Shown here: piece after piece, positions 1,910-59,247 of the stretch
Layout of the letters: each line of letters begins with the position of its first letter
Position numbering within the stretch: position 1 is the stretch's first letter
Assembly: GCA_040256005.1 (NCBI GenBank)
Contig: JBDZWC010000001.1
Location: 1 to 60,204 of the forward strand
DNA: 60,204 bases
Reading direction: 5' to 3'
Source of the DNA: Deinococcaceae bacterium
GTDB taxonomy: Bacteria > Deinococcota > Deinococci > Deinococcales > Trueperaceae
Notes under the pieces: model-generated
Database searches by the model: none
Told to the model about the DNA's origin: nothing
What the model saw: only the letters and a program-made list of their open reading frames with translations
Translations under genes and position numbers: made by a program

Positions 1910-1927
1910 GTTTCCGAGCAATTCGGT

Positions 1928-1966: not shown

Positions 1967-2018
1967 GGCGTGTATGGCGGCTCGCGTCTTAGGCGGGAGA
2001 CCTCCTAGGATACGAGCG

Positions 2019-11773: not shown

Positions 11774-11907
11774 ATCGTCTCCGTCCTGGCGCCGCGGCCG
11801 TCACGTCGAGCGCGGAGCCGTGTGCGAACTCCATGTTATTCACGGTTGCCGCGCGGTTCCGCAGGCACGACGGACCGAAGGTTCACCGTGACCCGGCACG
11901 TCGCGTG

Positions 11908-12522
11908 TCAGCTCGTGGGGTCGCGCCTCACCCGCACCTGTAGGTAACGTTCGCGTGTGGAGTAGAAGAGGCGTCTGGCGACGTCTCCGGCCAGCCGCGG
12001 CTCGGCGCTGGCGAAGAACTCGTCGAGGTGCACGTAGCCGCCAGCAGACGGGACCGGCTTCGACGGGTCGTACCTTCGCTCGAGCTCGTACCGGAGCGCC
12101 TGCAGGCACATATCTATCAGGTTCATGTCCCTGACGAAGACCGCCTCGGGCGAGGCCCTGTCCTCGTACTCTTGCCACGCCGACGCGACGGCGTCGGCGG
12201 CTGGCAGCGTCGACATGGCCTCTCGTTCAGCGCCCGCCTTGACCGCCTCCGGCACCTCCCGGTCCGCCGGGTCTGCCCTGGCTATGTGGTCGCCGGTCAC
12301 GACCTCCGCCAGGTCGTGGACCAACGCGATGGTGACGGCGCGGCCGACGTCCACGCCGCTCTCCTCCGCGTAGAGCAGGCACAGGAGGGCCGTGCCGTAC
12401 GAGTGATCGGCGACCGACTCCGGGCGGGCGACGTTCCTCAGCACCCAACCGGCACGCTCGACGTCCTTGAGCGCCGTCGCGGTGAACGCCAGCGCCAGGC
12501 GCGGCTCCAGCGCGGAGGCCAT
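11908..12522 (-). CDS. HD-domain phosphohydrolase (YfbR-like 5'-deoxynucleotidase family)
   Basis: H...HD metal motif (SVADHSYG ... LVHDLAEVVTGD). I chose ATG 12522 (MASALEPRL) because the Arg-rich track extension to 12756 overlaps the MFS gene. Confidence 0.7.
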   Translation of the reverse strand: MASALEPRLALAFTATALKDVERAGWVLRNVARPESVADHSYGTALLCLLYAEESGVDVGRAVTIALVHDLAEVVTGDHIARADPADREVPEAVKAGAEREAMSTLPAADAVASAWQEYEDRASPEAVFVRDMNLIDMCLQALRYELERRYDPSKPVPSAGGYVHLDEFFASAEPRLAGDVARRLFYSTRERYLQVRVRRDPTS

Positions 12523-12566
12523 GTCGTTCGGCGCCGATCGAGCCGTCCGTTGGTGTTCGCCGTGGC

Positions 12567-14033: not shown

Positions 14034-16237
14034 TCACGCCGGGCGGTCACGAAGCGATACGTGGCTCGCCATGCGACCTCGGCGTCCGGGAGCTGGGCCA
14101 GGAACGCGGAGCGCACCCTGGCTATCTCGCTCGCGGTCAACTCCCGCGCCAGTAGCTCGCTGTAGCTGGGTCGGCCCTCACCGGTCCTGAACCAGGCTTC
14201 CACGGTCCGGCGCGGCAGCGTCTCGAGAGAGGTGAACGTCCGCTTCTCGATGAAGATGTCCGCCAGCCCTGCCGACTCCGCAGCCGCCCGGAGGCCCTCG
14301 TCGTCTGGCTCCTCCGCCGCGTAGATGGCCTCCTCGGCGGCTTCCAGCTTGCGCTGGAGGTCCGCGTCCCCGAGGTCCACCAGCCGGTGGAGCCGCTGAG
14401 CCGAGGAGCGGTCGACGTCGGCCAGGACCAAGCGCCCCTCTGCCGCCAACAGGGCGTAGACCTGCGCCAGCAGCGGTCGTGCATCGCCCCAGCCCAAGGC
14501 GTCACGACCCAACACGACATCGAAGCTAGGCAGCGTGCCCTCGTGGGCGGCAGCGAGGTCGGACCTGAGGTCCATCGTGGAGCGGGTCGCGACCACTGGA
14601 CGCTGCAGCTCCGGCAGCCCTGCCGCGGCCTCAGCCAGAGCCTCCGCGTCCCCGGGGGTGCCGGCCAGAGCCCAGACCTGGCCGTCCGGAGCATGCCTCA
14701 GAGCCTCCCACGTCAGCAGACCGGTGCCGCCGTTGAGGTCGAGCACGATGTCGTGGCGGTCGACACGGGCGAGCCTGAAGATGTCGTCCCGAACCGCGGC
14801 CAGCCGCTCGCCTGCGCGCGACACCGCCCGTTCCAACCAGCGCTCGACCGGGCGCTCCGCCAGGGGGCGCCCGGGGACCTTGGGCCCTACAGACTGCAGC
14901 GCCTCGGCCTCTGCCAGCGCCGCGATCTGAGCCTCGCGCCGCCGCATGACCTCGGTCCTCACCGTCGCCTCGTAGCCGACCTCGCTGGGACGGTAGAACA
15001 CCTTCCCCTGCAGCGCGGCGGGCAGGTACTGCTGGGCGACCCAGTGATCGCGGTAGGCATGCGGATAGAGGTACCCCTCGCCGTGTCCGAGGCCCTCCGC
15101 ATCGCGGTTCGCGTCCTTGAGATGGTTCGGGACGTCGGCCTCGCGCTCGCTCTCGACGGCCGACAACGCGTCGAAGAACGCCAGCGTCGAGTTGCTCTTG
15201 GGCGCCGTCGCCAGGTACAGGGTCGCATGGGCCAGATGGAACCGCCCCTCGGGCATGCCAACGTAGTCGAACGCGCTGGCTGCCGCCGCCACGACCCCGA
15301 GGGCTTGAGGGTCTCCAAGGCCCACGTCCTCGCTGGCCAGTATCAGCAGGCGACGGAGGATGAAGCGGGGATCCTCGCCCGCGTACACCATCTTCGCCAG
15401 CCAGTAGAGGGCGGCGTCCGGATCGGAACCGCGCACGCTCTTGATGAACGCGCTGATCGTGTCGAAGTGAGCGTCGCCCTCCTTGTCGTAGAGGACGGCG
15501 CGGCGCTGGATCGACTCCTCGGCCACCTCGCGCGTGATCACGATGCGGTCGCCGGGACCGGCCTCGGTGGTCTCGACCGCGAGTTCGAGGGCGTTGAGCA
15601 GGGCCCTGGCATCGCCGTTGGACACGTTGACGAGGTGGTTCAGCGCGTCGTCCTCGATCGCGACGTCGAGGCGGCCATAGCCCCTGTCCGGGTCCTCGAG
15701 AGCCTGTCTGGCCACCGCGCGGAGGTCCGCGTCACCCAGCGGGGTCAGCTCGAAGACGCGGCTGCGACTCAGCAGGGCCTTGTTGACCTCGAAGTAGGGG
15801 TTCTCCGTGGTGGCACCGATGAGGACGACGGTGCCGTTCTCGACCCACGGCAGGAGGGCGTCCTGTTGTGCCTTGTTGAAGCGGTGCACCTCGTCGACGA
15901 ACAGGATGGTACGTCTGCCCGTCTCCTTCGTCACCTGGGCTCTGGCTACCGCCTCACGGATGTCCTTGACGCCGGCCAAGACAGCGTTGATGGCGATGAA
16001 GTCGGCCCTCGTCGTGTTGGCGATGACGCGGGCGAGGGTCGTCTTGCCGGTGCCAGGAGGTCCGTAGAAGATCAGAGAGGAGAGCTGGTCAGCCTGGATC
16101 GCCCTGCGGAGCAGGCGTCCCGGACCCACGATGCGGTCCTGGCCGATGAACTCATCCAGCGTCCGCGGACGCATGCGGGCTGCCAGTGGCTCGGCAGTGG
16201 TCCCGGTGAACAGGCCAGCCTGCCGCTTGCCCTCCAT
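14030..16237 (-). CDS. rarA: replication-associated recombination protein A (RarA/MgsA AAA+ ATPase) fused to a C-terminal class-I methyltransferase-like domain
   Basis: RarA part covers aa 1-435: Walker [10 protein letters not shown], Walker [12 protein letters not shown], and the MgsA C-terminal helical region. The extra ~300 aa carry the SAM-MTase motif-I-like [13 protein letters not shown] and motif LVLADV. Confidence 0.85.
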
Positions 16238-16248
16238 GCCGACCGGGC

Positions 16249-17052
16249 TCAGCGCCGGTAGAAGGTCTCCAGGGTCAGAGTGTAGTCGCCCGACTCGCCG
16301 GCGAAGTACGTGCTCGCGGCGATCACGTAGCTGCCTGGCGTCAACAGGGCCACCAGCAACGAGTCGGTAGTGAAACCGTCGTCGTCGTTGGTCGCGACGA
16401 TGTTGCCGTCGGCGTCGTAGAGGATCAGAGCCGCGTCCAGGTCTGACGAGGTCATGCTCGCGAGCAGCAGCAGCTCCTCAGCCACCTCGAAGCTGAAGTA
16501 CTCGGCGCCACCCGCGAACGCACCCGGTGCGGGCGCCATATCAGCGGCTATCGCCGAGGTCAGCGTCGCGGGCAGAGCGATGGGGGAGGCGGTCTCGGCG
16601 CCCCCGCGTACGCGCCCGCTGGAGAGCACGTAGGTACCCAGGTCGAAGTCGGACCAGCCGCTGACGACGACCACGTACCTTCCGCCAGCGTCCGCCAGGA
16701 AGCTGGTGCTCACTCCGCCCATGTCGTCACCGAAGTCGTTGAACGCCACGAGCGCGCCACCGCCGTCGAACACGCTGATCACCGGGACGAAGTCGGCGCT
16801 GTCCACCCTCAACGTCACCTTCTCGCCGGCCGAGACGGCGAGCGCGTACATGTCCAGACGGCTGCCGTCCTTGAAGTTCTGCCCGTCGGACTCGGTCAGT
16901 TCACCACTGACCTCGTCGCCGGGAGAGATGGCAGGAAGCTGGAAGAGGTAGTAGTTCGGAGCGGTGAGAGGTTGCTGCGCCTGCCCGATGGCGCCCAGGG
17001 TCGCGATGACCACTAGCGCCCCCAACGTCCGCCTCGCCTGTGCTTTAGCCAC
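16249..17052 (-). CDS. secreted protein with two pre-peptidase C-terminal (PPC)-like domains
   Basis: GTG 17052 gives the signal peptide VAKAQARRTLGALVVIATLGAIGQAQQ. Two ~100-aa repeats match the PPC pattern (D.Y.F....G..V.......D..L.L.D..G........GD/YTL). No catalytic domain is present. Confidence 0.6.
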   Translation of the reverse strand: MAKAQARRTLGALVVIATLGAIGQAQQPLTAPNYYLFQLPAISPGDEVSGELTESDGQNFKDGSRLDMYALAVSAGEKVTLRVDSADFVPVISVFDGGGALVAFNDFGDDMGGVSTSFLADAGGRYVVVVSGWSDFDLGTYVLSSGRVRGGAETASPIALPATLTSAIAADMAPAPGAFAGGAEYFSFEVAEELLLLASMTSSDLDAALILYDADGNIVATNDDDGFTTDSLLVALLTPGSYVIAASTYFAGESGDYTLTLETFYRR

Positions 17053-17104: not shown

Positions 17105-18190
17105 TCAGAAGAGACCCGGCTGCTCAGAGCTTCCGGGTACCCGGAACGCGGACGCGTCGAGCGACCTGCGGTCCCTGTTGAGGCCGAGGCGCCTGCAGGT
17201 GAGGTGGAAGAGGTCCCTGACCCGCTCCGCATTCTCGCCCGAGCCCTTCATGCGGCGGCCGAAGACGCTGTCGGCCACTCGGCCGCCGTGAGCTTCCCTC
17301 ACACGGTTGAGCACCTTGTCCTTCCGCAGCGGGTAGTTCGTCTCCAGCCACTCCTCGAACACCTGCGACACGGCGCCGGGCAGCCGGAGCAGCGTGTAGC
17401 TGGCGCTCTGAGCGCCAGCTGCGGCCACGGCAGCGAGGATGTCGGGGACCTCGTGATCGGTGAGGCCCGGGATGATGGGCGCGACGTTCACGCCGACCGG
17501 CACACCGGCCTCGGCGAGCCGCGTTACCGCGGCCAACCGGTTCGCGATCGTGCTAGTGCGTGGCTCCAGCTTCGCGCGCAGCCCCTCGTCCAACGTGGTC
17601 ACCGATACCGCCACGTGCGCTCCGTTCCAGGCGGCCATCTCGGCTAGGACGTCGAGATCGCGCGTGACGAGGGCGTTCTTGGTGATGAGGCCCACCGGGT
17701 TCCTGAACCGAGCCAGCACCTCCAGTACGGAGCGGGTGATCTTCAGCTTGCGCTCGATGGGCTGGTAGGGGTCCGTGACGCCGGAGATGGCGATGACCTG
17801 CGGCGTCCAGTTGGGAGACCGCAGACGTCGCTCCAAGAGGGCGGCCGCGTTGCGCTTGACGAGGATGACGCGCTCGAAGTCGAGGCCGGCCGAGAAGCCC
17901 AGGTACTCGTGCGTCGGCCGGGCGTAGCAGTAGGCGCAGCCGTGCTCACAGCCGCGGTATGGGTTGATGCTGACGTCGAAGCCGATGTCCGGGCTGTTGT
18001 TGCTGGCTACCGCCGACCGCGAGGTGTCGTCTAGGTAGCGGGTTCTGACGTGGAGGTCGTCCTCGCTGACCTCCTCCAGGTCGAGCTCCACCTCCAGCCG
18101 TGTGAACCGGTTGCCGGTGTTCAGTCGCGCGCCCCGGCCGCGATGGGCCCGGGGGTCGGGGAGAGCAGCCCGTTCGTCCTCGGCAGACAT
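17105..18190 (-). CDS. radical SAM protein (SplB / PA0069-like DNA-repair photolyase family)
   Basis: CxxxCxxC cluster motif in INPYRGCEHGCAYCYARP. Size and overall pattern match the COG1533-type family. Confidence 0.75.
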   Translation of the reverse strand: MSAEDERAALPDPRAHRGRGARLNTGNRFTRLEVELDLEEVSEDDLHVRTRYLDDTSRSAVASNNSPDIGFDVSINPYRGCEHGCAYCYARPTHEYLGFSAGLDFERVILVKRNAAALLERRLRSPNWTPQVIAISGVTDPYQPIERKLKITRSVLEVLARFRNPVGLITKNALVTRDLDVLAEMAAWNGAHVAVSVTTLDEGLRAKLEPRTSTIANRLAAVTRLAEAGVPVGVNVAPIIPGLTDHEVPDILAAVAAAGAQSASYTLLRLPGAVSQVFEEWLETNYPLRKDKVLNRVREAHGGRVADSVFGRRMKGSGENAERVRDLFHLTCRRLGLNRDRRSLDASAFRVPGSSEQPGLF

Positions 18191-18279
18191 GCCTCAGATA
18201 CTAAGGTATGGACGCGACTACGGGGTGAGCCGACCGTACGCACGGTGCGGCCAGCCCCGGCGATGTAACCTGTCCCGTC

Positions 18280-45826: not shown

Positions 45827-47623
45827 TCAGTCTCTCCTGGCGCGGACCATGTAGGCCCCGCGTCTGATGCGGCTTAGCCGGTCGGGGCGTTCGGAGATGC
45901 GCTCGAGCGCCCGCTCGGCCCGCTCCTCCCCCATCCCGAGGATCTCGCCGAGCGCCTCCGCCCTGATGATGGCCGGGGTGTCTGGACGGCTCAGGTACTC
46001 CTCCACCGACCTGATGTCCAGCTCGAGGCCGCCGCTGGCGGGCGCCGCGGCCTCCGGCTCGGTGTCGACGGTGACCAGGTACTCGCCCCCGAAGTCGGCG
46101 TCGTCGATGAGCGGGACGTTGCGCTGTTCCACACGCGCCACGGTCGAATGGGTATCCGCGGCCCGAGGACCGTTTGGACTGCTGGCCCTGGAGGCAGTGG
46201 CGCGCGCCACCTGAGGCGCGGGGAACAGCGTCCCCGGCTCGTTGCCAGCCTGGTCGCTGGACCGCCCTGTCTCACCCCGCGCACGGCTCTCCAAGCGCGG
46301 GTCTGTCGAGCCACGACCGTTCTTATCGAGGAGTCGCGATCCTGCGGCAGCGGGCTCGACGCGCTGCGATCGCACGTAGCCTTCGTGACCGCCCGCGCTG
46401 GGGGTTCGATGGCCGCCTGCCTCGCCGGCCGGTTCTCCGGGTGGGACGCGGCCGACCTCGGCAGAGGGTGCCTGTGGTCTGTCACCTGTGAGCACCACGG
46501 GCCGCGGAGCTCCTACGGTCGTATCGGCGCCGCCAGCGCGGAGCGGGGCCGCCACGAGCTCCCTGCCCTGTTCCCTGCTGCCCGTGCGCTCCTCCTGGGG
46601 TTGCCCGGCCGCCCGATCCGACCTGCTGGGCCCGCTCGTGTACGGACGGTCCCTGGGCTGGGGTGCTGCAGGCCTTGCGCCCAGCCGCATCCTGGAGGAC
46701 AGGGCTGCCCAGTTGCGTGGCCTCCAACCCGAGTCCGCCGGGGTGTCGACCGGCCTCGCGGACTCGATAGGCGGTGCCCTCAGGTCAGACAGCTGCAGTG
46801 GGACCTCGGTCTCCATGGTCGCCGTGATTGGTCCGACCACTTGCTCTGCGTGATCGACGACGGCAGGCGCGGGGGACGCGCCGGCCCCGACCGACGCACT
46901 CGCCCCGTGCTGGGCGGCTGGGCGTCTCTTGACACGCACCGTGGTGAGGCCCTCGTCAGGGATCGACCCCGTCGCCGCATCAGCCCAGCTCGCCGCCGGA
47001 CCTCGCCGATCATCCTCCCAGTCGGGGTTGGCGTCCCGCGCGGGCACGTCCAGCTCGGACGGGGCCTGCGCGGAGGGCAGCCCAGGGATACGAACACGTC
47101 TTACAGCTCGCACCTCCTCGACGCTTTCCCACGGCTCCCTCGGCGCCAAGTCGTAGCTGGAGGACTTGCGCTCTGCTCTCCCCTGTTCGGCGCCCGTCTC
47201 TTCGTTCGGCCGCTGCCGCTCCCTCTTGACGCATGTCGCGCTCAGCCTCACGAGACGGCCAGCGTCCACCTCGAGCGCGAAACGGACCCGATCGTTCGAC
47301 CGGAGGCCGCGCGCGCCGAAGTGATCTCTGAGCCCGTACAGTCGCCGTGGGGCTTGGAAAGCGAGCTCGACCGCCTCTCCGTCCAGCTCCGCAGCGACGC
47401 TGCCCGGAGCGAAGTACTCGATCATCTTGAGCGGTAGTTGGATCACACCGCTGCTGACACAGACACTCGTCAGGTTCAGTTCGAACACATGTGTAGACAA
47501 TTCGGTCACCGTCCGCCCCTGGTCCGGCTTATACATCTCGGCCGCTTGGCTTGAGCACACTTTGTCACATTCTGACGGCCGTGTGTCCAGATCGTCCCGC
47601 TCTCGACGGCGACAACCCGCCAT
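45827..47623 (-). CDS. hypothetical protein: N-terminal B3/EcoRII-N-like barrel, ~400-aa Pro/Arg/Ala-rich linker, C-terminal helical (wHTH-like) domain
   Basis: The ends look protein-like. N-terminal end: VFELNLTSVCVSSGVIQLPLKMIEYFAPG...RSNDRVRFALEVDAGRLVRLS. C-terminal end: IRSVEEYLSRPDTPAIIRAEALGEILGMGEERAERALERISE. The middle is low-complexity. Start uncertain (47623 or ATG 47536). The opposite-strand ORF 46148..47437 looks like Arg-rich shadow. Confidence 0.5.
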   Translation of the reverse strand: MAGCRRRERDDLDTRPSECDKVCSSQAAEMYKPDQGRTVTELSTHVFELNLTSVCVSSGVIQLPLKMIEYFAPGSVAAELDGEAVELAFQAPRRLYGLRDHFGARGLRSNDRVRFALEVDAGRLVRLSATCVKRERQRPNEETGAEQGRAERKSSSYDLAPREPWESVEEVRAVRRVRIPGLPSAQAPSELDVPARDANPDWEDDRRGPAASWADAATGSIPDEGLTTVRVKRRPAAQHGASASVGAGASPAPAVVDHAEQVVGPITATMETEVPLQLSDLRAPPIESARPVDTPADSGWRPRNWAALSSRMRLGARPAAPQPRDRPYTSGPSRSDRAAGQPQEERTGSREQGRELVAAPLRAGGADTTVGAPRPVVLTGDRPQAPSAEVGRVPPGEPAGEAGGHRTPSAGGHEGYVRSQRVEPAAAGSRLLDKNGRGSTDPRLESRARGETGRSSDQAGNEPGTLFPAPQVARATASRASSPNGPRAADTHSTVARVEQRNVPLIDDADFGGEYLVTVDTEPEAAAPASGGLELDIRSVEEYLSRPDTPAIIRAEALGEILGMGEERAERALERISERPDRLSRIRRGAYMVRARRD

Positions 47624-47812: not shown

Positions 47813-48217
47813 CTACCTTGGCTCGTGGAAGATGAACACGCCTCGTACCGCGCCGGGCTGAGGTTCGGTGAGGAACAGCTCCACCGAGCCGTACGCGCCC
47901 GAACCGAAGGTGAGCTCCACAGCCCAGACACCGTTCGCCGATCGCCACGGTCCCAGACGGAGCTCGGCGGCAGCGTACTGGTCCGCTACCTCCGTGAGCG
48001 CCTCAGCCAGGCTGCTCGCACCCGCGGGGCTGGCGACGAAACAGACGTCGTGCTGGTAGGTGGTCAGCGTGCAGATCGATTCCTCGGCGTGGAAGGCCGC
48101 CAGTAGGTCGGTGACGACTGGCGCGTAGGCTGACGCCATGAGGCTGTCCTTGGCCCAGACCACCAGGCTCGCGGTCACGAACCCGAGCGCTACGATCAGG
48201 CGCCTCACGGCCGACAT
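47813..48217 (-). CDS. hypothetical small secreted protein
   Basis: ATG 48217 gives MSAVRRLIVALGFVTASLVVWA (signal-peptide-like). I recognise no family motif. Confidence 0.45.
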   Translation of the reverse strand: MSAVRRLIVALGFVTASLVVWAKDSLMASAYAPVVTDLLAAFHAEESICTLTTYQHDVCFVASPAGASSLAEALTEVADQYAAAELRLGPWRSANGVWAVELTFGSGAYGSVELFLTEPQPGAVRGVFIFHEPR

Positions 48218-48455
48218 CGGAACCTCGCGACCGATATACGACCTGCGGTGGGGTGCTGGGATGGGCGCGGGCGAGCGATCAGCATGGAGTGTGGATGGCA
48301 CCCTTCGGGAGGCGTCGAACGCCGTTGGGGGGGAACGGCGCTCGACGCAGCAGCCATTGTTCCATCGCCCCAGACGCCAGACATGAGGGGCTTCCCACAA
48401 CTTCGTCACGCTCCAGAGCCGCATCGCGAACGACCGATGTTAGCCTGGCTGGACC

Positions 48456-49559
48456 TTGACCGAAGCCGGGACGATCGATCAGCCGGGTCTCTTCGACCTG
48501 CGGGAATACTCGTCGCCAGACCGTGTGGACGGAAGCGTCGTACTCACTGAACCAACCCGCGGCGACCCGCTGCCTCGCGAAGGCGACTCCGGTGCGGTGC
48601 CGCCCACCTCGGGCGCAGACGCCCCGTCCTCCGCGGCCACCCCGGAAGACAACGAGCGCTGGGAGGCGCTCGTCGCCGACCTGGAAGCGACCGGGCGTTA
48701 CCGCGTCCTACGCCGCTTCGACGAACGGCTCGACGATCCGCCGGCGCCGGTCGTTGGCTCGGGGGTCCGCAAGGGCGTCTACCTCGACGTCGAGACGACC
48801 GGGCTCATGGCCCATGACCGCATCATCGAGCTGGCGATGCTCGTCTTCCATTACGACGAGACTGGCAGGGTCGTACACGTGACCGAGGCGTTCGATCGCC
48901 TGGAGGACCCGGGACGCACGATCCCGGCCGACGTCGTCTCCCTCACAGGCATCACGAACGACATGGTGAGGGGTCAACGTATCCTCGACGAGGAGGTAGC
49001 GCGGCTACTGGATGGGGTCGACCTGGTCGTGGCGCACAACGCCGGGTTCGACCGCCAGTTCGCTGAGGCACGCTTCCCGTTCTTCAGCGAGGTCGACTGG
49101 GCCTGCTCGATGGCCGACGTCGACTGGTCGGCCGGGGGTCTCAGGAGCCGCCGGCTGGAGAACCTGGCGCTGGCGAAGGGGTACTTCTACCAGGCTCACC
49201 GCGCGATCTACGACTGTCACGTCGCGCTGGGCCTGCTACGGATGCCCATCCGCGAGTCCGGACCACCGGCCTTCGCCGACCTGCTGCAGCGCTCGGCGGC
49301 CGTGTGGGTGAGGCTCTGGGCCGAAGGCAGTCCGTTCGAGAAGAAGGACGACCTCAAGGCTCGCGGGTACCGCTGGAGCGGGCAGGCCAAGGCCTGGTGG
49401 AAGGACCTGCCCGCCTCGCAACACGAGGCCGAGGTCGAGTGGTTGGCGGACAACGTCTACCCCAGACGGCGCGCTCTCCCCTTCCTGACCATCACCCCTA
49501 GGAACCGCTACTCCCGCCGCCTGCCGGAGGCTCCGCCGGCGAGCGCCGAGAGGCTCTGA
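48456..49559 (+). CDS. DEDDh 3'-5' exonuclease (DnaQ/epsilon-like) with disordered N-terminus and Trp-rich C-terminal domain
   Basis: ExoI is YLDVETTGL, ExoII is VAHNAGFDRQF, ExoIII is HRAIYDCHV. The C-terminal domain contains KARGYRWSGQAKAWWKDL. TTG start. Confidence 0.8.
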   Translation: MTEAGTIDQPGLFDLREYSSPDRVDGSVVLTEPTRGDPLPREGDSGAVPPTSGADAPSSAATPEDNERWEALVADLEATGRYRVLRRFDERLDDPPAPVVGSGVRKGVYLDVETTGLMAHDRIIELAMLVFHYDETGRVVHVTEAFDRLEDPGRTIPADVVSLTGITNDMVRGQRILDEEVARLLDGVDLVVAHNAGFDRQFAEARFPFFSEVDWACSMADVDWSAGGLRSRRLENLALAKGYFYQAHRAIYDCHVALGLLRMPIRESGPPAFADLLQRSAAVWVRLWAEGSPFEKKDDLKARGYRWSGQAKAWWKDLPASQHEAEVEWLADNVYPRRRALPFLTITPRNRYSRRLPEAPPASAERL

Positions 49560-49572
49560 GCGCGCCATTGCG

Positions 49573-50133
49573 TTATTGCGCGAGCGCTTGAGCGAGTTGC
49601 TCGCGCGCGGAGCTAAGTTGGGACTGGTCGACCGGGCCGCCCCTGGCGAGGGCGACCTCCAACGCCGTGAACTCCCGTTCACCGACGGGCAGCAGCTCCC
49701 GGTTGCCCCAGGCGGTGGCAACGTGGTTGAGGACCAGCGCCAGTTCCTGGTCGCCAAGGTGACCGAACGACGGCATGAGCCCGTCGTAGCTCCGGCCCGC
49801 CACGTTCACGTCGCCGGAGAGGCCGTGCAGTAACACCCTGACCAGGTACCACCGCCCACCGTCAACGCCCAGAAGCTCCGGGACCACTGCCGCCAAGGGA
49901 GGGTACGCCCCCACCAGACCGTCTCCCGTGTAGCCGTGGCAAGCGGCGCAGTCGGCCTCGTAACGGGCCCGGCCCGCCGTCGTGTCCAACGTGGCTAGGT
50001 CCCTGCCCACGGGCACCGGTGACGAAGCGTCGCCGATCGACGTGAACGACGCTGCCGCGGCGCACACCGCCACAGCGCATAGACCGAGCGCCATCCACCG
50101 CAGGCCCGCTGGACGTCCGGCCGTACGCCTCAC
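49573..50133 (-). CDS. class I c-type cytochrome (secreted)
   Basis: Heme motif CAACHG. Signal-like MALGLCAVAVCAAAA. GTG 50133 overlaps the polX TGA (GTGA). ATG 50094 is an alternative start. Confidence 0.7.
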   Translation of the reverse strand: MRRTAGRPAGLRWMALGLCAVAVCAAAASFTSIGDASSPVPVGRDLATLDTTAGRARYEADCAACHGYTGDGLVGAYPPLAAVVPELLGVDGGRWYLVRVLLHGLSGDVNVAGRSYDGLMPSFGHLGDQELALVLNHVATAWGNRELLPVGEREFTALEVALARGGPVDQSQLSSAREQLAQALAQ

Positions 50134-51872
50134 GCCTTGGCGAGGAACGCCAGTACCTCGGGCAGGGGCCGCGTGTTGACGACGTCTTCCGCCGTGAGCC
50201 AGGCCCGCCTGGCCTGATCGACGCCCAGGCGCATCACGCCGAGGCCACGCACCGAGTGGGCGTCGGAGCCGATGAAGACCTTGAGCCCCGCAGCGACGGC
50301 CGAGCGCAGGTGGACGTCGGGGAGGTCCAGTCGACGTGCCGACGAGTTGTGTTCGACCGCCACGTGGTTGGCCGCACAAGCGGCGAACACCTCGGTCAGG
50401 TCGATCGCTATGGGGTCCCGTTGACCGATCTGACGGCCCAACGGGTGCGCGTAGACGTTGACGCGCGGGTGCGACAGCGCCTTGACGACGCGCTCGGTCT
50501 GTACCGACTCGGGTAGCTCGAAGAAGCTGTGTACGCTCACGATGACGACGTCGAGGTTCGCCAACTGCTCGTCGGTCACGTCGAGGCTGCCGTCCTTAAG
50601 TATGTCGACCTCCATACCGCGCAGTACGCGGATGTCTTCCCGGCCGGCTATCAACCCTGCGAGCTCGGCGTGCTGGCGCCTCAGCTTGTCGTCGTCCAGT
50701 CCCCCTTGCAACGCGAGCGACCCGCTGTGGTCGGTGATCGCCATGTACTCGTAGCCCAGTGCGGCGCACCCTTCGATCATCGCTGCCAAGCTGTCGCGTC
50801 CGTCGGACCAGGTCGAGTGCATGTGGAGATCGCCACGCAGGTCCGTCAGCTCGATCAGGTCGGGTAGGGCGCCCGCCGCGGCCCCGGCGACCTCTCCCCT
50901 GCCTTCTCGCAGCTCCGGCGGCACGAACGCCAGACCGAGTCCGGCGTAGATCTCCTCCTCCGTGGCGCCAGCGAGCCGCTTGCCGCCGGGTCGGTCCTTG
51001 CCTGCCGAGCCGCCCGCGAACAACCCGTACTCGTTGAGGTGCCAGCCCTTGTCCAGGGCCAGCTGCCTCAGCTCGACGTTGTGCTCCTTGGAGCCCGTGA
51101 AGTACAGGACCGCCGCACCATAGCTCGCCTCCTCGACCGTCCTCAGGTCGACCTGGAGGCCGCTCCGCAGGTCCACGCTGGTCTTGGTCTCACCCGTGCC
51201 CAACACCGCAGCGACCTCGTCGTACGTGGCCAGCGCAGCGTGCAAGGCGGCCGGCTCAGTGGCGACGGCCACCAGGTCGACGTCACCGACGCTCTCCTTG
51301 CGACGCCGGTAGGACCCTGCGACCTCGAGGCGCCGGACGCCGGGCACCGCCAACAACCGCTCGAGCAGCGGGACGAGAACGGCGTCCACGTGGCCGAGAG
51401 GAAGGCGCCCGACGTTCCGCCTGTAGCTGTCTATGCCGCGGAGGATCCGCTCGGCGGACTTGGCACCGAAGCCCTTCAGCTCGGTCAGGCGGCCCGCCCG
51501 CGCAGCGGCCTCGAGGTCGTCGACCGACTGCACGCCCAACGCCCTCCAGAGCGTCGCTGCCTGCTTGGGTCCGACCCCCTTCACGCGCGTGAGGTCGAGC
51601 AGACCCACCGGCACCCGCTCCTCGAGCTCGATCAGCTGCGGCATGACGCCCGTTTCGACCAGGGTACGTACCTTGGCCGCTATCTCTCTCCCTACTCCCT
51701 TGATCGCGGTGAGATCCGCCCCGCCCGCCAACAGCTCCTCGACCGGGGTCTCTATGTCCCTGATCGTCGCCGCCGCGTTCCGATACGCGCGCACCTTGAA
51801 CGGGTTGTCGCCATCGAGCTCCGAGAGGTCGGCCAACCGGTCGAGCTGCCTGGCTATCTCGGCGTTGCTCAT
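50130..51872 (-). CDS. polX: family X DNA polymerase with C-terminal PHP domain
   Basis: N-terminus MSNAEIARQLDRLADLSELDGDNPFKVRAYRNAA (HhH, 8-kDa-like). Pol-beta-like core with GSYRRRKESVGDVDL. PHP motifs DLHMHSTWSDG and ITDH. Confidence 0.9.
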   Translation of the reverse strand: MSNAEIARQLDRLADLSELDGDNPFKVRAYRNAAATIRDIETPVEELLAGGADLTAIKGVGREIAAKVRTLVETGVMPQLIELEERVPVGLLDLTRVKGVGPKQAATLWRALGVQSVDDLEAAARAGRLTELKGFGAKSAERILRGIDSYRRNVGRLPLGHVDAVLVPLLERLLAVPGVRRLEVAGSYRRRKESVGDVDLVAVATEPAALHAALATYDEVAAVLGTGETKTSVDLRSGLQVDLRTVEEASYGAAVLYFTGSKEHNVELRQLALDKGWHLNEYGLFAGGSAGKDRPGGKRLAGATEEEIYAGLGLAFVPPELREGRGEVAGAAAGALPDLIELTDLRGDLHMHSTWSDGRDSLAAMIEGCAALGYEYMAITDHSGSLALQGGLDDDKLRRQHAELAGLIAGREDIRVLRGMEVDILKDGSLDVTDEQLANLDVVIVSVHSFFELPESVQTERVVKALSHPRVNVYAHPLGRQIGQRDPIAIDLTEVFAACAANHVAVEHNSSARRLDLPDVHLRSAVAAGLKVFIGSDAHSVRGLGVMRLGVDQARRAWLTAEDVVNTRPLPEVLAFLAKA

Positions 51873-51897
51873 GGCACGGGGGGCGGGCGCCTCGCCA

Positions 51898-54223
<2,326 letters not shown>

Positions 54224-54266
54224 ACTACCTTAGTAAATGAGGTGGCCGTGTGATCTGTCCTACAGA

Positions 54267-54932
54267 TCAGGCCAGGCGCTGCACGCAGGCGGGGCTGTCG
54301 AACCTCGGACTGCCCACGGACCTGTCAACGGGATGCATGGTAAGGACGCCGGCGTCGGCCGGATCGAGCAGGTCCTCGAGTCTTGTCGGGTCCTTCTCCT
54401 CGACGTCGAGCCAACGGCCCCACTCCCCCTTCTCGAGGACCACGGGCATCCTGTCGTGCAGCTCTCGCATCTCGACGTTGGCGTCCGTGGTCAGGATGGT
54501 GCACGACGCGATTGGCGCCTCACCGTTGCGGTTGACCGCCCAGAGGCCGGCGAAGGCCAGCGGCTGCCCATCCGTCCGGTACACGTAGTAGGGCTGCTTA
54601 GCCCCGCCTTCGGTACGCCACTCGTAGAAGCCAGAGGCCGGCACCAGGCAGCGTTGCGACCTCATGGGGTCACGGAACGACGGCTTGTCCGCCGCGCTCT
54701 CCGCGCGCGCGTTGAACAGGTTCGACCTGAAGTCCTTGGGGTCCTTCACCCAGTGCGGCAGCAGACCCCAGCGCATCTCCTCCATGACCCTGCTCCCGTC
54801 GGAACGCTGTCTGATCACGGGCACGGTGCTCGTCGGGGCGATGTTGTAGCGCGGCGTGAGCGGGTAGGTCTCGACCTCGAAGAGCGTTGCCAGGTCGTCC
54901 TCGTGGCTGTACAGCGTGTAGCGCCCGCACAT
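54267..54932 (-). CDS. SOS response-associated peptidase (SRAP/YedK family, abasic-site DNA-protein crosslink sensor)
   Basis: N-terminal MCGRY with catalytic Cys2. YNIAPT and WGLLPHW motifs. 221 aa. The ATG directly abuts the rep stop codon. Confidence 0.9.
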   Translation of the reverse strand: MCGRYTLYSHEDDLATLFEVETYPLTPRYNIAPTSTVPVIRQRSDGSRVMEEMRWGLLPHWVKDPKDFRSNLFNARAESAADKPSFRDPMRSQRCLVPASGFYEWRTEGGAKQPYYVYRTDGQPLAFAGLWAVNRNGEAPIASCTILTTDANVEMRELHDRMPVVLEKGEWGRWLDVEEKDPTRLEDLLDPADAGVLTMHPVDRSVGSPRFDSPACVQRLA

Positions 54933-56438
54933 CTAAGCCGCCTCCTCCAGCGCGACCAGGATCGACTCCCGCGCCTGGGCAGAGTACTCCGACAGCACGT
55001 TCTCGGTGCCGACGTAGGCCTTCACGTCACGGAGGTGGGAGGGGAAGGTCACGAAGCCGTGGCTCGCCATCACGTCCGTGCGCTTGGATTCGTACAGCGT
55101 GCCGCGCCAGTCGTCCGCGCCGATTCGCTCCAGGGTGAAGCGGTGCAGGGTGGCCTGCATGATCGTATGCACCAGCTCCCGGTTGTCTGGCGTCATCGCC
55201 TGCCAAGCGGCGCTGGCCAGGCGCTTGCGTGCTTGGTGGAACGCCTCGAGGATGCTGGCGGCGATGCTGCGCGCCTCGTCGGCCGTCATCGCCGCGTCCG
55301 CAGCTTCGTCGGCGATCTGCTCGGCGGGCGGTTCGACGCCCTGCGTCAGCAGGCTGTTGACGAAGCCGGCCAGGTTGTAGATCGGCCGTCCTGCCCCCTC
55401 CGCCTTCGCCTGCAGCTGGCGTGCGTAGGCGACTATGCGCAGCACGCGGTCGGCGCCGTGATGCCCGACGGTACGGTCGGCATCCTGAGCCCAGCCGATC
55501 TCCCTGAGCGCGTCCGTGGCTTGCAGCTCTCGCAGCAGTCGCTGCTTGTCCGCGGGGCGCGGCACCCGCTTCGCGAGGCTGGCCGGTAGCCGGATACGTG
55601 GCTTGAAGACGTCGTTCTTCTCGATACGGAAGGTTACGCGCTGGTACTTGCGTCCGACCTTGGCCGCTTCGTAGTCGAAGACGAGGCATGTGTACTTGGC
55701 GAACTCCTGCTGCGCCCTGTCGAGCACGTACTTGAAGTCCTTGAAGCGCTCGTACTTGCCGTCGAGCCCGAGTCGCAGCTTGAGGTCGTCGACGTCGAAG
55801 GTCAAGCGTCGCCTCTCGCCGGCGTAGCTCGCGGTGTACAGCACCTCGAAGAGCCTCATGCTGTTGAAGCTCTCGAAGCTCAGGAGCTGGTCCGTAGGGA
55901 TGATGCTGAAGTCACGACGCAACTGCAAGAGGTACGGCTTGAGCTTCTCGTGGATCTTCAGCTCTATGCAGGCCATCTGATCCTTGCTGTCGCGGCCGTT
56001 CTCGTAGCGCGCCTCGGAGACCCACTGGAACATCACCCAGTCCCCGTTGGGCTCCTTGACTTGGACCGTCTGCTCGAGCAGCTCCCGTGCCGACTCCTCG
56101 ATCCGCGAGTAGATGCTCTTCCCCTTGATGTTGAACAGCTGAGCGAACTCCCAAGCCGTGATGCGGATGGGCTGGAGGTCCTCGTCGTTCCGGGTCACGT
56201 CCGACAGCGCCAGTACCAGCAGGCGCTTGCTGAGGATCCCCATCTCCTGCCGGCTGAGCGCCAGCGGGTTCGCTTGAGTCACCGACAACTTCGAGCCGCC
56301 GCGGTCTAGGGCTCGCGTCTCCCCTCTCCGGCCCCTCCCGGGACCCGCCGTGCCCCGCCTGCCCTTCACAGCGAGCGGCTCTACCTCCACCGCGGTAACC
56401 TCATCCACGGGCGTCGTACCTCTGTTCGAAGCGTCCAT
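54933..56438 (-). CDS. plasmid-type replication initiator (Rep_3/RepB-like winged-helix initiator) with a long C-terminal extension
   Basis: The core (aa ~50-300) reads like Rep_3 initiators: VTQANPLALSRQEMGILSKRLLVLALS, ITAWEFAQLFNIKGKSIYSRIEESARELL, FESFNSMRLFEVL. Iterons lie immediately upstream. A ~45-aa disordered N-terminus and a ~200-aa helical C-terminus are unassigned. Confidence 0.85.
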   Translation of the reverse strand: MDASNRGTTPVDEVTAVEVEPLAVKGRRGTAGPGRGRRGETRALDRGGSKLSVTQANPLALSRQEMGILSKRLLVLALSDVTRNDEDLQPIRITAWEFAQLFNIKGKSIYSRIEESARELLEQTVQVKEPNGDWVMFQWVSEARYENGRDSKDQMACIELKIHEKLKPYLLQLRRDFSIIPTDQLLSFESFNSMRLFEVLYTASYAGERRRLTFDVDDLKLRLGLDGKYERFKDFKYVLDRAQQEFAKYTCLVFDYEAAKVGRKYQRVTFRIEKNDVFKPRIRLPASLAKRVPRPADKQRLLRELQATDALREIGWAQDADRTVGHHGADRVLRIVAYARQLQAKAEGAGRPIYNLAGFVNSLLTQGVEPPAEQIADEAADAAMTADEARSIAASILEAFHQARKRLASAAWQAMTPDNRELVHTIMQATLHRFTLERIGADDWRGTLYESKRTDVMASHGFVTFPSHLRDVKAYVGTENVLSEYSAQARESILVALEEAA

Positions 56439-56471
56439 CCCGCCCTTCCAAGCCCGGAGACCTTCCTGCGC

Positions 56472-56501
56472 ATCCTACGTCCGGTGGGAATGAACCGTCA
56501 A
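56472..56501 (-). promoter_or_regulatory. candidate rep promoter
   Basis: On the minus strand, TTGACG (56501-56496), 18 nt, TAGGAT (56477-56472). The -10 lies ~34 nt upstream of the rep ATG. The -35 is flanked by degenerate iteron copies, consistent with autoregulation. Confidence 0.4.
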
Positions 56502-56726
56502 CGCTTTCCCGCTAGTTCCCCCTTTCCCGGGGAGAGCGCATCCAGGTTCCCCATTTTCCCCGGTTCGGTCCCCCGTCTTCCCCGGTTGGTACCGCCGCTT
56601 CCCCGCCGAGGTCCCGCCGCTTCCCCGCTCCGGTACCCGAACCTTCCCGCCAGGGTACCCCCGCTGTCCCGCTCAACGTCGAACAGCCCCGTCCTGAACG
56701 CACTTCCCGGCGTTCCCTAATGGGAA
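56497..56726. repeat. iteron array (six 22-bp-phased units plus degenerate copies) ending in an inverted half-iteron palindrome
   Basis: Units start at 56545, 56567, 56588, 56610, 56632 and 56654, each GGT(A/C)CC..(C)TTCCCG. Degenerate CTTTCCCG copies sit at 56504-56511 and 56522-56529, and CTTCCCG at 56703-56709. The palindrome TTCCCTAATGGGAA is at 56713-56726. Confidence 0.85.
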
Positions 56727-56812
56727 TCTGAAATGGAGCTGAAGAACCTCAACAACCCAAAGCTTGCTGTTGCTCTCTTCCAGAAGTCAGCCAGATCTCG
56801 AGATCGAGACGC
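56713..56812. other. AT-richer stretch, candidate DNA-unwinding element
   Basis: My hand count over these ~100 nt gives about half G+C, against clearly higher G+C on both sides. It is adjacent to the iteron array and has no convincing ORF. Confidence 0.4.
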
Positions 56813-56910
56813 CCTCGGTTCCGCAAGTACCGGCCGTTTCCCACTTCGGAAGGCGCGGGCTGCAGCCCGAAACCTCGCTGGCTCGGGCCGATGAACGCAC
56901 CCAGACCGGC

Positions 56911-57018
56911 GGTACCCCCTCTCCCCTACCGGGCATAGGCGCCGGCTACAGGTCCGCATGGCGGCCCGGACATGGCGCTCGCGCAGCACCAGGCACAAAC
57001 GGGAAAGCGACGGTACTC
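56911..57018. repeat. two isolated iteron copies in opposite orientations
   Basis: GGTACCCCCTCTCCCC (56911-56926) has the same orientation as the left array. GGGAAAGCGACGGTACTC (57001-57018) has the same orientation as the right cluster. Confidence 0.6.
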
Positions 57019-57511
57019 GCGGACCGGCTGCGGCCTGCGCATGGTGTCGATGCCGCCATAACGATATGGCGTTTCACCGGGACGCTCCGACTCCGGTGGC
57101 CGAGGCGGACCTGTGATGTAGAGATCGGACCCGCTGTGGAGTCCCGGAGCTGCGGGAGAGCCGACTACTCACCGCCAAGCCTCCTCATTGGCCCTGCGCG
57201 GGAGGTTCGCGGGCCAGCGAAGGCGACGAGGGAGGTCGGCTGCGGGCGCTGCCGCGCCGACGTGCTGACGTTGGCCCTTCCCCACCGGAGCCGGTCCCGA
57301 GGTACACGCTCGTTCGCGGCCTACCGGATGTAGCGCCGACACAGAGCGTCCGATCCTGCGACGCAATAGCGTTATGGCGCTCACCAGCGCCCCGGTCCTC
57401 GGGAACGCGGAGCCGCGGCCGGGCGTCGCGTACGGCTCCGGAGGGCGCGGGTAGAATCACGAGCGTGACACCTCCAGCCGAGACCACACCACTTGTCGAT
57501 GGCGGGTGTGG

Positions 57512-58300
57512 ATGCGGGTCCTGACGTTCTTCAACCATGCCGGTGGCGTGGCGAAGACGAGCACGGTAAGGGACGTCGGCTACGTCCTCGGCGAGCGCGG
57601 CTATCGCGTCCTGTTGATCGACGTAGACCCTCAAGCGAACCTGACGCGGTGGTTGGGCGTGGAGGACGTCGACCTCGCCGATACGATCTATCCCGGCGTC
57701 ATGAGCGCGGCTGAGGACGAGGACGTGGACGATCAGGAACTGGTACTGCCCAGGCCGCGCACCGTTCACGGCATGGACTTGATACCCAGTCAACTGAACG
57801 TGGCGATCCTGGAGCGGGAGATCCTGAGCGTGTTCATGGGCGTCGTGCGGCTACGGGAAGCCGTCAGGAAGCTCGAGGGCTACGACTTCGTCCTGATAGA
57901 TCCGCCGCCGAGCCTGGGTCAGTTGTCGGCGTTGGCGGTCGTGGCGGCTGATGGAGTGGTAGTGCCGCTACCGACGAACAGGAAGGGCCTCGACGGGCTC
58001 GCGACCGTGATCAAGATGGTGCGGGAGTACCGGAAGGCGGCGCCCAGACTCGACCTAGAGTTCTTCGTGCTCACGCAACACGACCGGCGGACCCGCCACG
58101 ACCGGGAGAGCCTCGACGCGATCGGGCGGCAACTCGTCAGCATCGCGCCGGTCTCCACGCCGCTGGGTAGCCGGCCGGCGTACTACTCGGACGCGCAAGT
58201 AGCGGGGGTGCCCGTACCGGTGTACGCTCCCGGGAGCGATGCGGACATGGAGATCAGGACCGTCACGGACGAGCTTCTCGAGGCGCTGGGGAACGGCTGA
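57512..58300 (+). CDS. parA: ParA-family partition ATPase with an atypical deviant Walker A
   Basis: MRVLTFFNHAGGVAKTSTV...LLIDVDPQANLT...VLIDPPPSL. ATG 57512 (GTG 57506 also in frame). The TGA shares one base with the parB ATG. Confidence 0.85.
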   Translation: MRVLTFFNHAGGVAKTSTVRDVGYVLGERGYRVLLIDVDPQANLTRWLGVEDVDLADTIYPGVMSAAEDEDVDDQELVLPRPRTVHGMDLIPSQLNVAILEREILSVFMGVVRLREAVRKLEGYDFVLIDPPPSLGQLSALAVVAADGVVVPLPTNRKGLDGLATVIKMVREYRKAAPRLDLEFFVLTQHDRRTRHDRESLDAIGRQLVSIAPVSTPLGSRPAYYSDAQVAGVPVPVYAPGSDADMEIRTVTDELLEALGNG

Positions 58301-59247
58301 TGGCTAAGAAGCGGGGATCCGTCGACAGGTCCGCGGTGTTCGAGGCCATCCTCGGCGGGTTGACCGAAGAGGAGGCCGTCGAGAGCGGGACGACCTTGCC
58401 GCTGCGCGCCATCAGGTTCAACGACCGCCAGCCGCGCAAGCACATCAGCGAGGATGGCTTGGAGGAGCTGGCCGCGAGCATCAAGGACAGAGGCGTGCTG
58501 GAGCCCGTGATCGTGAGGCGCGTCGGGGGCGGGTTCGAGTTGGTTGCGGGCGAGAGGCGCACGCGGGCGGCTGCGCTGGCGGGGCTGGAGGAGATCCCCG
58601 CGATCATCGTCGACATAGATGACCGCGAGGCGCTCGAGATCGCGATCATCGAGAACCTGCAACGGGAGGACCTGAACGCGGTAGAGGAGACAGAGGCCGT
58701 GTTGGGGCTGCTCGAGATGGAGCTCGATGCGGGTCGGCGCGAGGTCACCCAGGTCCTCCAGGCGCTGTACAACGAGGAGCGCGGACGTATCACGGGCCGG
58801 AAGGTGAGCGACGGTGAGCGCAAGAGCGTGCAGGCGCTGTTCAAGCGGTTGGGCCGCTTCAGTATCAGTTCCTTCGTGAGCAACAGGCTGCCTATCCTCG
58901 AGTTCCCCGAGAGCTTGCTGGCAGCCGTTCGCGAGGGGAGACTGGCGTTCACGAAGGCACAGGCGATCGCCCGGGTGGCCGATGCGGACGACAGGGAGCG
59001 CCTGCTCAGTGTGGCGGTGAGCGAGGATCTGTCCCTTAGTCAGATACGCCGCCGGATCACCGAGCTGAGGGCCGGGCGTGCGGCGCTGGCGCAGCGGGGA
59101 GCGGCGAGCCACCTGGATGCTACGCACCGATTGGTGTCCAACACGAAGCGGCTTTTGAACAGGCGACGCTTGGTCGCGCTCGCGCCCGAGAAGCTAACGC
59201 GGGTGAACGAGCTGCTCGAAGCGTTGCGGGCTGAGCTGGAAGAGTGA
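58300..59247 (+). CDS. parB: ParB/Spo0J-family partition protein
   Basis: ParB N-terminal box I/II with an arginine patch (PVIVRRVGGGFELVAGERRTRAA), HTH region, and C-terminal dimerisation helix. Confidence 0.9.
   Translation: MAKKRGSVDRSAVFEAILGGLTEEEAVESGTTLPLRAIRFNDRQPRKHISEDGLEELAASIKDRGVLEPVIVRRVGGGFELVAGERRTRAAALAGLEEIPAIIVDIDDREALEIAIIENLQREDLNAVEETEAVLGLLEMELDAGRREVTQVLQALYNEERGRITGRKVSDGERKSVQALFKRLGRFSISSFVSNRLPILEFPESLLAAVREGRLAFTKAQAIARVADADDRERLLSVAVSEDLSLSQIRRRITELRAGRAALAQRGAASHLDATHRLVSNTKRLLNRRRLVALAPEKLTRVNELLEALRAELEE

Follow-up and report, generated by a model that had tools for sequence, protein, structure and literature searches.

The 60,204-nucleotide (nt) stretch of DNA analysed here (below, the window) comes from an uncultured lineage of the Trueperaceae (Deinococcota) with a 68% GC genome, and carries a string of six minus-strand genes, namely those for a replication initiator (rep), an SRAP/YedK-like protein, a small membrane protein encoded by a short open reading frame (ORF), the DNA ligase LigA, the DNA polymerase PolX and a c-type cytochrome. 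The original prediction, made from the letters of the window, was that the string is one operon that places a complete short-gap repair set under the iteron-controlled promoter of rep. Such a single initiator-driven repair operon is probably the wrong reading, and the model that replaces it is more conventional: the string is best explained, as judged from its layout in related genomes, by two regulatory units that came to lie side by side in the lineage of the window. Specifically, it appears probable that the origin core of this Rep_3/iteron replicon is made of a rep/SRAP unit and of a small ORF-ligA-polX/cytochrome c unit under LexA-type control. A complete short-gap repair set remains plausible in functional terms, though its members belong to two units under different regulation.

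The gene string and its conservation

The six genes, in the order of transcription, are:

54933-56438, minus strand: rep, replication initiator (Pfam Rep3_N, 87.1 bits, cut-off 22.4; Rep3_C, 40.1 bits, cut-off 21.1)
54267-54932, minus strand: SRAP/YedK-like gene (PF02586, 258 bits; product starts with MCGRY; YedK and HMCES structures matched)
53957-54214, minus strand: small membrane ORF, 85 amino acids (aa), with orthologues in at least 19 loci
51898-53946, minus strand: ligA (all LigA domains; NCBIfam LigA equivalog, 795 bits)
50130-51872, minus strand: polX, family X polymerase with a PHP domain (PolX equivalog, 497 bits)
49573-50133, minus strand: monohaem c-type cytochrome with a signal peptide (CAACH haem motif, Pfam cytochrome c matches)

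The co-directional arrangement and the ORF coordinates are as originally described, and the gene identities proposed then are borne out by the Pfam and NCBIfam profile matches. LigA is a full-length NAD-dependent enzyme (Ia, adenylation domain with KxDG, OB, Zn, HhH and BRCT), and the nearest solved structure to PolX is that of T. thermophilus PolX (3AU2). As read in the sequence, the rep stop TAG (54933-54935) abuts the SRAP ATG (54930-54932) with zero gap, ligA follows the small ORF after 10 nt, polX follows ligA after 25 nt, and the TGA of polX overlaps the GTG of the cytochrome gene (GTGA at 50130-50133). The gaps are 0, 52, 10, 25 and -4 nt; the largest had been put at 43 nt, but the distance from SRAP to the small ORF is 52 nt, the small ORF starting at ATG 54214. 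The GTG at 54223 (88 codons) was rejected as a start in favour of this ATG (85 aa, MSPLGLL...), at which both the orthologues and the database gene calls begin. Tight co-directional packing by itself is ordinary in a genome of this GC content; the conservation of the arrangement exceeds chance.

The conservation was followed in 52 related loci, which were obtained by scanning one genome per GTDB species for the Rep locus and are nearly all from metagenome-assembled genomes (MAGs) of Trueperaceae/Deinococcota; two truncated matches came from bins labelled otherwise. Gene order was read by tblastn with the window proteins. One contig, L058, is 99.8% identical to the window and extends 8 kb past its right end (60204). 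The Rep homologues, about 100 in number, are 57-90% identical, and all the named ones are from Trueperaceae MAGs; the proteins ranking below them are only 29-34% identical, and of the plasmid Reps of PLSDB, the 30 best records listed do not exceed 29% identity, and all 539 are below 60%. The identity of LigA to its relatives tracks that of Rep, the matches listed in the LigA search being orthologues of at least 60% identity, all from the same type of locus.

Almost everywhere in these relatives, parA, parB and prx follow one another away from the origin on one side, and rep and SRAP on the other. SRAP comes directly after rep in 43 loci including the window, and ligA followed by polX lies no more than 10 kb downstream of rep in 29 of the 37 loci with enough flank. 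Since this core order is conserved in 52 species-level relatives, the adjacency of rep-SRAP and ligA-polX is not due to chance, and the possibility of a chance juxtaposition, raised with the original prediction, is ruled out by this synteny check. The ratio of nonsynonymous to synonymous substitution rates (Ka/Ks) is 0.07-0.16 for rep, SRAP, ligA and polX (0.09-0.16 for rep and 0.11-0.15 for SRAP), and the Ks values are similar for these four genes and the small ORF. Hence the genes have been co-inherited, and all of them are under constraint. The Ka/Ks of the small ORF itself (0.16-0.31) indicates that it is a real gene.

The cytochrome c gene was found by tblastn only in L001-L007, L019 and L051; its start overlaps or abuts the polX stop (ATGA, GTGA, TGATG) also in L001, L002, L004 and L005. 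In L053 (a 285-kb contig, positions 11802-14555), an insertion sequence with an rve transposase replaces SRAP after rep, and ligA is not found within 10 kb, which shows that the neighbourhood can be disrupted.

The proposed rep/SRAP unit

The first unit is preceded by an origin region with these elements:

56472-56501, minus strand: rep promoter TTGACG-18-TAGGAT (sigma-70-like scan)
56502-56680, minus strand: iteron array, about eight copies of GGGRAR-N5-GGKACC at 21-23 bp spacing (repeat search)
56715-56800: relatively AT-rich stretch beside the iterons, candidate DNA-unwinding element, read from the sequence

The iteron-type origin and promoter that had been proposed upstream of rep are thus present. 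The promoter is the only sigma-70-like site found in 48400-57600 (9.2 kb), and its -35 box is overlapped by the last iteron-like repeat, a geometry typical of autoregulation. All 35 sources scanned, namely the window and 34 related loci, have the iteron motif with its spacing upstream of rep. Separate from the main array, isolated iteron-like copies are seen at about 56830-56845 and 56912-56927; in many loci extra copies lie some 200-300 bp upstream of the array, which recalls the split iteron clusters of plasmids.

The SRAP gene appears to be coupled to rep, as had been proposed. The gap between the two genes is -1 to +4 nt in 17 of the 43 loci and at most 12 nt in 21 of them. In the window, a GGAGG Shine-Dalgarno sequence for SRAP lies within the last codons of rep, and in the relatives (A)AGGAGG is found inside the 3' end of rep wherever the two genes abut; both the abutting junction and the embedded Shine-Dalgarno are kept. 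SRAP is the sole gene never split from rep by an insertion (43 loci with both genes). Its product matches PF02586 over practically the full domain (residues 1-208 against profile positions 1-213 of 214) and has the nucleophile Cys2, the sequence ATGTG[CT]GG being conserved in the 43 loci. SRAP proteins are described as cross-linking abasic sites in single-stranded DNA (ssDNA) and preventing strand scission (PMC10505908, PMC6821365); judging by family membership, the SRAP of the window would act likewise.

The coupling is not universal. SRAP does not follow rep in L019, L020, L027, L040, L051 and L053. In a sub-clade of six loci (L009, L011, L018, L024, L039, L043) the gap is 51-60 nt, and TATAAT, TATGAT or TATACT stands 6-7 nt before the SRAP ATG; these loci, by their promoter sequence, would express SRAP independently, though it still adjoins rep. 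Leaderless promoters of this kind are the majority class in Deinococcus deserti (PMC4007540).

Such cases bear on a reading under which the adjacency of rep with SRAP and with ligA-polX has no function of its own and is frozen synteny of a vertically inherited, origin-proximal segment. The entire neighbourhood, including prx, the exonuclease gene and the genes for the 203-aa and 598-aa proteins described below, is syntenic across the family; the six loci without SRAP after rep, the six relatives in which it has its own TATAAT-type box and the highly variable distance from SRAP to ligA all fit this reading as well. Nevertheless, the end-to-end junction and the embedded Shine-Dalgarno have been kept across species with Ks > 1, and SRAP stays beside rep even where insertions broke everything downstream, so that frozen synteny appears somewhat unlikely. 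The recurrent, often end-to-end coupling of initiator and SRAP would provide a concrete, testable link between replication initiation and the protection of ssDNA.

The putative promoter block of the small membrane protein

The second unit begins with the small ORF, which in 19 loci is preceded by a conserved non-coding block, whereas neighbouring intergenic DNA is not conserved. The ORF is conserved in relatives much more distant than tblastn can reach; in the 19 loci, it encodes an N-terminal transmembrane helix and an invariant Asp and comes after this block. In the window, the block consists of:

54249-54264, minus strand: TGT-N10-ACA inverted repeat TGTAGGACAGATCACA, CRP/FNR-type (offset shared in 14 of the 19 loci)
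54226-54244: 19-bp palindrome CACCTCATTTACTAAGGTA with the core CCTYA-N5-TRAGG, a putative SOS (LexA) box (motif scan)
54222-54227, minus strand: -10 hexamer TAGTGT (TAnnnT), 7 nt before ATG 54214

Over the 19 loci, the order is TGT-N10-ACA (at a fixed offset in 14 of them), 4 nt, the 19-bp palindrome TACCTCAnTTACTAAGGTA and the ATG, which comes after a further 10-11 nt in 14 loci, the window included. In all 14 loci with the 10-11-nt spacing, a TAnnnT hexamer begins with the last TA of the palindrome and reaches to 6-7 nt from the ATG. A TAnnnT box 7 nt before ATG 54214 is, as far as its sequence goes, the geometry of a leaderless mRNA. If the A of this ATG is taken as +1, the TGT-N10-ACA repeat is centred at -41.5, which would be the class II position of a CRP-type activator, making the repeat a putative activator site and suggesting dual control by an activator and an SOS repressor. 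In the window, the repeat is also part of a stem-loop over the SRAP stop. In a divergent clade (L040, L045 and L049) that lacks the TGT-N10-ACA site, the small ORF is preceded by a tandem pair of palindrome-like copies with 17 nt between them (L040 4962-4997, L045 14695-14730, L049 18620-18655).

The encoded protein is single-pass, with an N-terminal transmembrane helix, an invariant Asp26 and a basic disordered tail. Its 24 database homologues are all hypothetical proteins without a Pfam domain, and both of those with a named source are from Trueperaceae. Of the small ORF and the cytochrome c gene, both left unexplained originally, only the former can now be placed, namely as the leaderless first gene of a putative SOS unit. 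In position and architecture only, the small protein may tentatively be likened to the membrane-bound division inhibitors of SOS responses. Known examples (YneA of B. subtilis, SidA and DidA of Caulobacter, ChiZ of M. tuberculosis) are likewise short, poorly conserved, single-pass and encoded first behind an SOS-type operator. Unlike them, however, the small protein has no LysM domain and no sequence similarity to them was found, and its gene is grouped with ligA and polX instead of being divergent from lexA. The family, a new one, is a candidate damage-induced effector.

The palindrome as a candidate SOS operator

The core CCTYA-N5-TRAGG has two matches in the window versus 0.13 expected, one before the small ORF (54228-54242) and the other at 18192-18206. 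The exact core turns up 28 times in the roughly 880 kb of related loci, namely 23 times before the small ORF, three times before lexA (L019, L051, L058) and twice before orf92-dnaE2 (L029, L052), and nowhere else. The lexA and dnaE2 promoters have canonical TTGACA-17-TATCCT boxes with the palindrome immediately after them, and the lexA-like promoter of L058 carries the perfect palindrome TACCCTTAGTATCTAAGGGTA. The second copy in the window belongs to the following pair of features:

18190-18208: second 19-bp palindrome, ending on the A of the ATG of the radical-SAM gene
17105-18190, minus strand: radical-SAM gene of the PA0069/Rv2578c family (NF033668, 481 bits)

PA0069 is listed among the 15 SOS genes of P. 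aeruginosa in 10.1101/2022.03.14.484287, which cites Cirz 2006, and Rv2578c, the M. tuberculosis relative, has a LexA ChIP-seq site (PMC3381160).

The genes for the presumed repressor lie across the origin. In L058 (8954-17117), prx is followed by an FMN_bind_2 gene and then, on the opposite strand, by a lexA-like gene (16331-16963), an imuB-like gene, orf92, an AAA_14/DUF4143 insert and a dnaE2-like gene. This SOS mutagenesis cassette is about 12 kb from the iterons, and it lies on the parAB side in many relatives; many relatives have a dnaE2-like gene beyond prx. The lexA-like protein (210 aa, Peptidase_S24 domain) matches TIGR00498 (lexA) from one end to the other.

Being common to the promoters of the repressor itself, of imuB-dnaE2 and of the radical-SAM gene, the palindrome is most likely, on this distribution, the SOS (LexA-type) operator of the family. 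Since the operator is shared with the lexA promoter and its regulon, we infer that DNA damage induces the small ORF-ligA-polX(-cytochrome c) unit. Together, these genes would make a first sketch of a regulon (lexA-imuB-dnaE2, a PA0069-type radical-SAM gene and the small membrane protein-ligA-polX unit), with a probable housekeeping ligase under damage control on a plasmid-type replicon. A relaxed scan for SOS boxes found none upstream of rep, so that SRAP is not obviously LexA-controlled here.

Alternatively, the palindrome could be the operator of another regulator, similar to DdrO with its RDRM motif, or mark a strong type of promoter, and not be a LexA box. The lexA-like protein scores 87.8 bits, below the curated NCBIfam cut-off of 110.95, so that the binder of the palindrome is not proven to be LexA, and this counts against the assignment made above; the half-sites vary between clades; and the damage regulon of Deinococcus uses a 17-bp palindrome (RDRM) bound by a repressor other than LexA (PMC4007540). 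Still, the palindrome stands in the promoter of an S24-peptidase repressor gene that heads imuB-dnaE2, the classical autoregulated LexA arrangement, and all the other sites precede typical SOS genes, which makes a different regulator or a mere promoter type unlikely. The SOS assignment would add a new motif to the known ones: to our knowledge, the core CCTYA-N5-TRAGG matches no published LexA box.

The palindrome was also considered as a centromere and rejected in that role, since one copy is 38 kb away from the origin and others stand in the promoters of lexA and dnaE2. Weaker palindrome-like matches, TGCCTTATACGAACAGGTA at 1404-1422 and CCTTCATGTAGAAGG at 7853-7867 of the window, may be due to chance. 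The promoter of the radical-SAM gene has an internal TAGTAT 7 nt before the ATG, again a leaderless geometry; the palindrome at 18190-18208 is also 72 nt upstream of lepB (18280, plus strand).

Two units or one operon

With these elements, the proposed two-unit arrangement would function as follows. In the first unit, rep and SRAP would be transcribed from the sigma-70 promoter, with Rep bound to the promoter-proximal iteron limiting transcription, and SRAP would be translated by termination-reinitiation at the TAG/ATG junction, using the GGAGG in the 3' end of rep. SRAP would be made in step with the initiator and might offer protection when origins open and forks are launched. In the second unit, transcription would start at ATG 54214 from a leaderless promoter with a CRP-type site at -41.5 and the palindrome over the promoter; upon damage, the LexA-like repressor would be cleaved, and LigA and PolX would rise together with lexA-imuB-dnaE2 across the origin. 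PolX and LigA could then complete gap filling and sealing; bacterial PolX enzymes have polymerase, 3'-5' exonuclease and apurinic/apyrimidinic (AP)-endonuclease activities (PMC12926913).

Comparison with the relatives does not support the claim of an entire repair set governed by the iteron-controlled rep promoter. In the relatives, ligA starts anywhere from about 0.3 to about 8 kb after SRAP, with insertions of 0.4-8 kb in many of them; these insertions include opposite-strand genes, such as those for an ArsB-like permease and an AlgI/MBOAT cluster. Therefore, ligA-polX cannot depend on the rep promoter in those genomes. In L019, L020, L040 and L051, which are without SRAP, the small ORF-ligA-polX block still follows rep. 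The TATAAT-type boxes of SRAP in six relatives and the promoter/operator of the small ORF count against the claim as well.

A single six-gene operon, with the rep promoter as its only promoter and the repair capacity slaved to the autoregulation of the initiator, would account for the six co-directional genes with small gaps, and the closest relatives (L001-L003) are just as compactly laid out. In 48400-57600, no intrinsic terminator is predicted versus 2.8 expected, and the convergent junction between the cytochrome c and exonuclease genes folds no better than shuffled sequence. The earlier statement that no terminator-like hairpin exists in the string is correct as to intrinsic terminators, but a 13-bp stem-loop (z = -2.1) overlaps the SRAP stop; it lacks a U tract, and the hairpin is not conserved. 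This stem-loop, the conserved promoter/operator block before the small ORF and the opposite-strand inserts in many relatives, where ligA-polX needs a promoter of its own, render the single operon quite unlikely.

In the two-unit model, some read-through from the first unit into the second may occur in the window, since the only hairpin between them lacks a U tract. Several further points weigh against this model in addition to the low score of the lexA-like protein. All the promoters were read from the sequence alone; the promoter scan did not flag that of the second unit, the -10 box of which matches only TAnnnT; and the small-ORF start is 33-42 nt after the palindrome in 5 of the 19 loci, so the leaderless geometry is not universal. 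With the units 52 nt apart and no canonical terminator between them, substantial read-through from the rep promoter is possible. Finally, if this LigA is the only one of the cell, its repression by LexA would need a basal bypass.

Kind of replicon

The partition genes complete the origin region:

57506-59247, plus strand: parA-parB (Pfam and NCBIfam)

They are divergent from rep across the approximately 1-kb non-coding origin region and adjoin it in essentially all loci with enough flank. No canonical parS was found in the window, and no DnaA box TTATCCACA (with at most one mismatch) within 10 kb of the iterons. Rep combines WH1 and WH2 with a conserved, family-specific C-terminal extension of about 220 aa, its WH1 matching RepA in PDB entry 1HKQ (E = 5e-5). 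The GC skew flips sign at the iterons (mean -0.07 vs +0.017 in 26 loci), an effect that dies out within 8 kb and in which gene orientation is a confounder.

Judged by the features used to define chromids, plasmid-type replication and partition functions are present (Rep_3, iterons, parAB), and candidate core genes lie on the same replicon (ligA, polA, polX, lexA-like, ftsH and lepB). In addition, the window encodes PolA, DinB, two DEDDh exonucleases, a RarA-like ATPase, FtsH, LepB, SurE and a Xer-like recombinase; no tRNA, tmRNA, rRNA, Rfam family or ribosomal-protein gene was found in its 60 kb. As the Rep_3/iteron/parAB origin carries housekeeping genes of DNA metabolism and is inherited vertically, the replicon behaves, on the evidence of its gene content, like a chromid, with a plasmid-type origin, large size and many genes, transmitted vertically across the Trueperaceae. 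The family-wide occurrence of such a secondary-type origin (Rep_3, iterons and parAB in 52 species-level genomes) has no description in the literature searched.

Alternatively, these Trueperaceae could use the same origin for their main, or sole, chromosome. It is conserved in the 52 species-level genomes, has no DnaA boxes and is surrounded by genes that are normally chromosomal and single-copy (ligA, polA, lexA, polX and the rarA-like gene). This alternative is nonetheless highly unlikely: among about 100 protein clusters, no rep-bearing contig exceeds 285 kb (in the largest one, of 285 kb, rep is in mid-contig), the window is without tRNA, rRNA and ribosomal-protein genes, the skew changes sign only locally, and the Rep searches yielded no homologue from the complete genome of Truepera radiovictrix. 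Moreover, multipartite genomes are common in the Deinococcota.

A more far-reaching version, which we deem quite improbable, is that of an essential Rep_3 replicon with the only ligA, polA and lexA of the cell, perhaps a DnaA-independent main chromosome, in which SRAP is a dedicated partner of the initiator. If so, SRAP would shield abasic sites in the ssDNA exposed upon origin opening, and in this lineage, adapted to radiation and desiccation, duplication of the genome would be tied directly to an SOS island around the origin.

Comparison with known systems

All the parts are of known kinds: an iteron Rep_3 replicon, parAB, SRAP, LigA, PolX and an SOS cassette. The new features are the family-wide coupling of rep and SRAP, the candidate SOS box of the Trueperaceae, the bracketing of an origin by putative SOS operons and a ligA-polX unit, probably under LexA-type control, in which the gene for a lineage-specific membrane protein comes first. 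They bear on how repair capacity is organised around origins in extremophilic Deinococcota, via gene dosage and co-regulation.

The replicons of pPS10 (RepA), F (RepE), R6K (pi) and pSC101 (RepA) share with the window a WH1+WH2 initiator, upstream 22-bp iterons, a last repeat over the rep promoter and an adjacent par operon. The window differs from them in that no DnaA box was found, the initiator has the additional C-terminal part of about 220 aa, SRAP is coupled to rep, and the replicon is at least 285 kb in size and carries housekeeping genes. Chromids in the sense of Harrison et al. 2010 (chromosome II of D. radiodurans, pTT27 of T. thermophilus, chromosome 2 of Vibrio) also combine a plasmid-type initiator and parAB with core-type genes, and the Trueperaceae replicon is, like them, conserved, here at the family level. 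In contrast to these chromids, its origin has SOS-type repair operons on both flanks, and ligA, polA and lexA occur together. A literature search on a chromid or megaplasmid of Truepera or Trueperaceae found nothing relevant, and neither did one on a link between SRAP and replication initiators.

Bacterial SRAP genes have been described in the neighbourhood of UmuCD, ImuAB-DnaE2, DinB, LexA and Ku/ligase systems (PMC3765255); in that survey the word "plasmid" does not occur, and rep-SRAP coupling is absent. The Trueperaceae SRAP has the same full-length domain and Cys2 as YedK and HMCES, and here, too, dnaE2 and lexA are within 12 kb. Unlike the SRAP genes surveyed, however, it has a replication initiator gene as its partner instead of a translesion polymerase operon. 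On plasmids, SRAP genes are frequent (2182 PLSDB records); the adjacency of rep and SRAP was absent in three PLSDB plasmids inspected (Methylocaldum, Thauera and Rubrobacter), which do not amount to a systematic survey.

The known SOS regulon (lexA-imuA-imuB-dnaE2, PA0069, Rv2578c) likewise has one palindrome across the promoters of the repressor, imuB-dnaE2 and the radical-SAM gene. Unlike in the known SOS regulons, the operator of the Trueperaceae also precedes a ligA-polX unit, with the small membrane protein first and cytochrome c last.

Other features of the window

Between 14030 and 30771, no more than 40 kb from the origin, DNA-metabolism genes are densely clustered. The cluster holds the genes for a 735-aa RarA-like AAA ATPase with a methyltransferase-like tail (PRK13341) and a 1027-aa HerA/TraD-like ATPase, as well as polA, dinB and a DEDDh exonuclease gene that overlaps the dinB end. 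The left end of the window (1-2000) is lower in GC (0.62). Next to the gene string, a 598-aa low-complexity protein (45827-47623, minus strand) and a 203-aa protein (47813-48424, minus strand) have no family match; their genes are conserved, in several relatives, downstream of the convergent gene for a PRK09182-type 3'-5' exonuclease (48456-49559).

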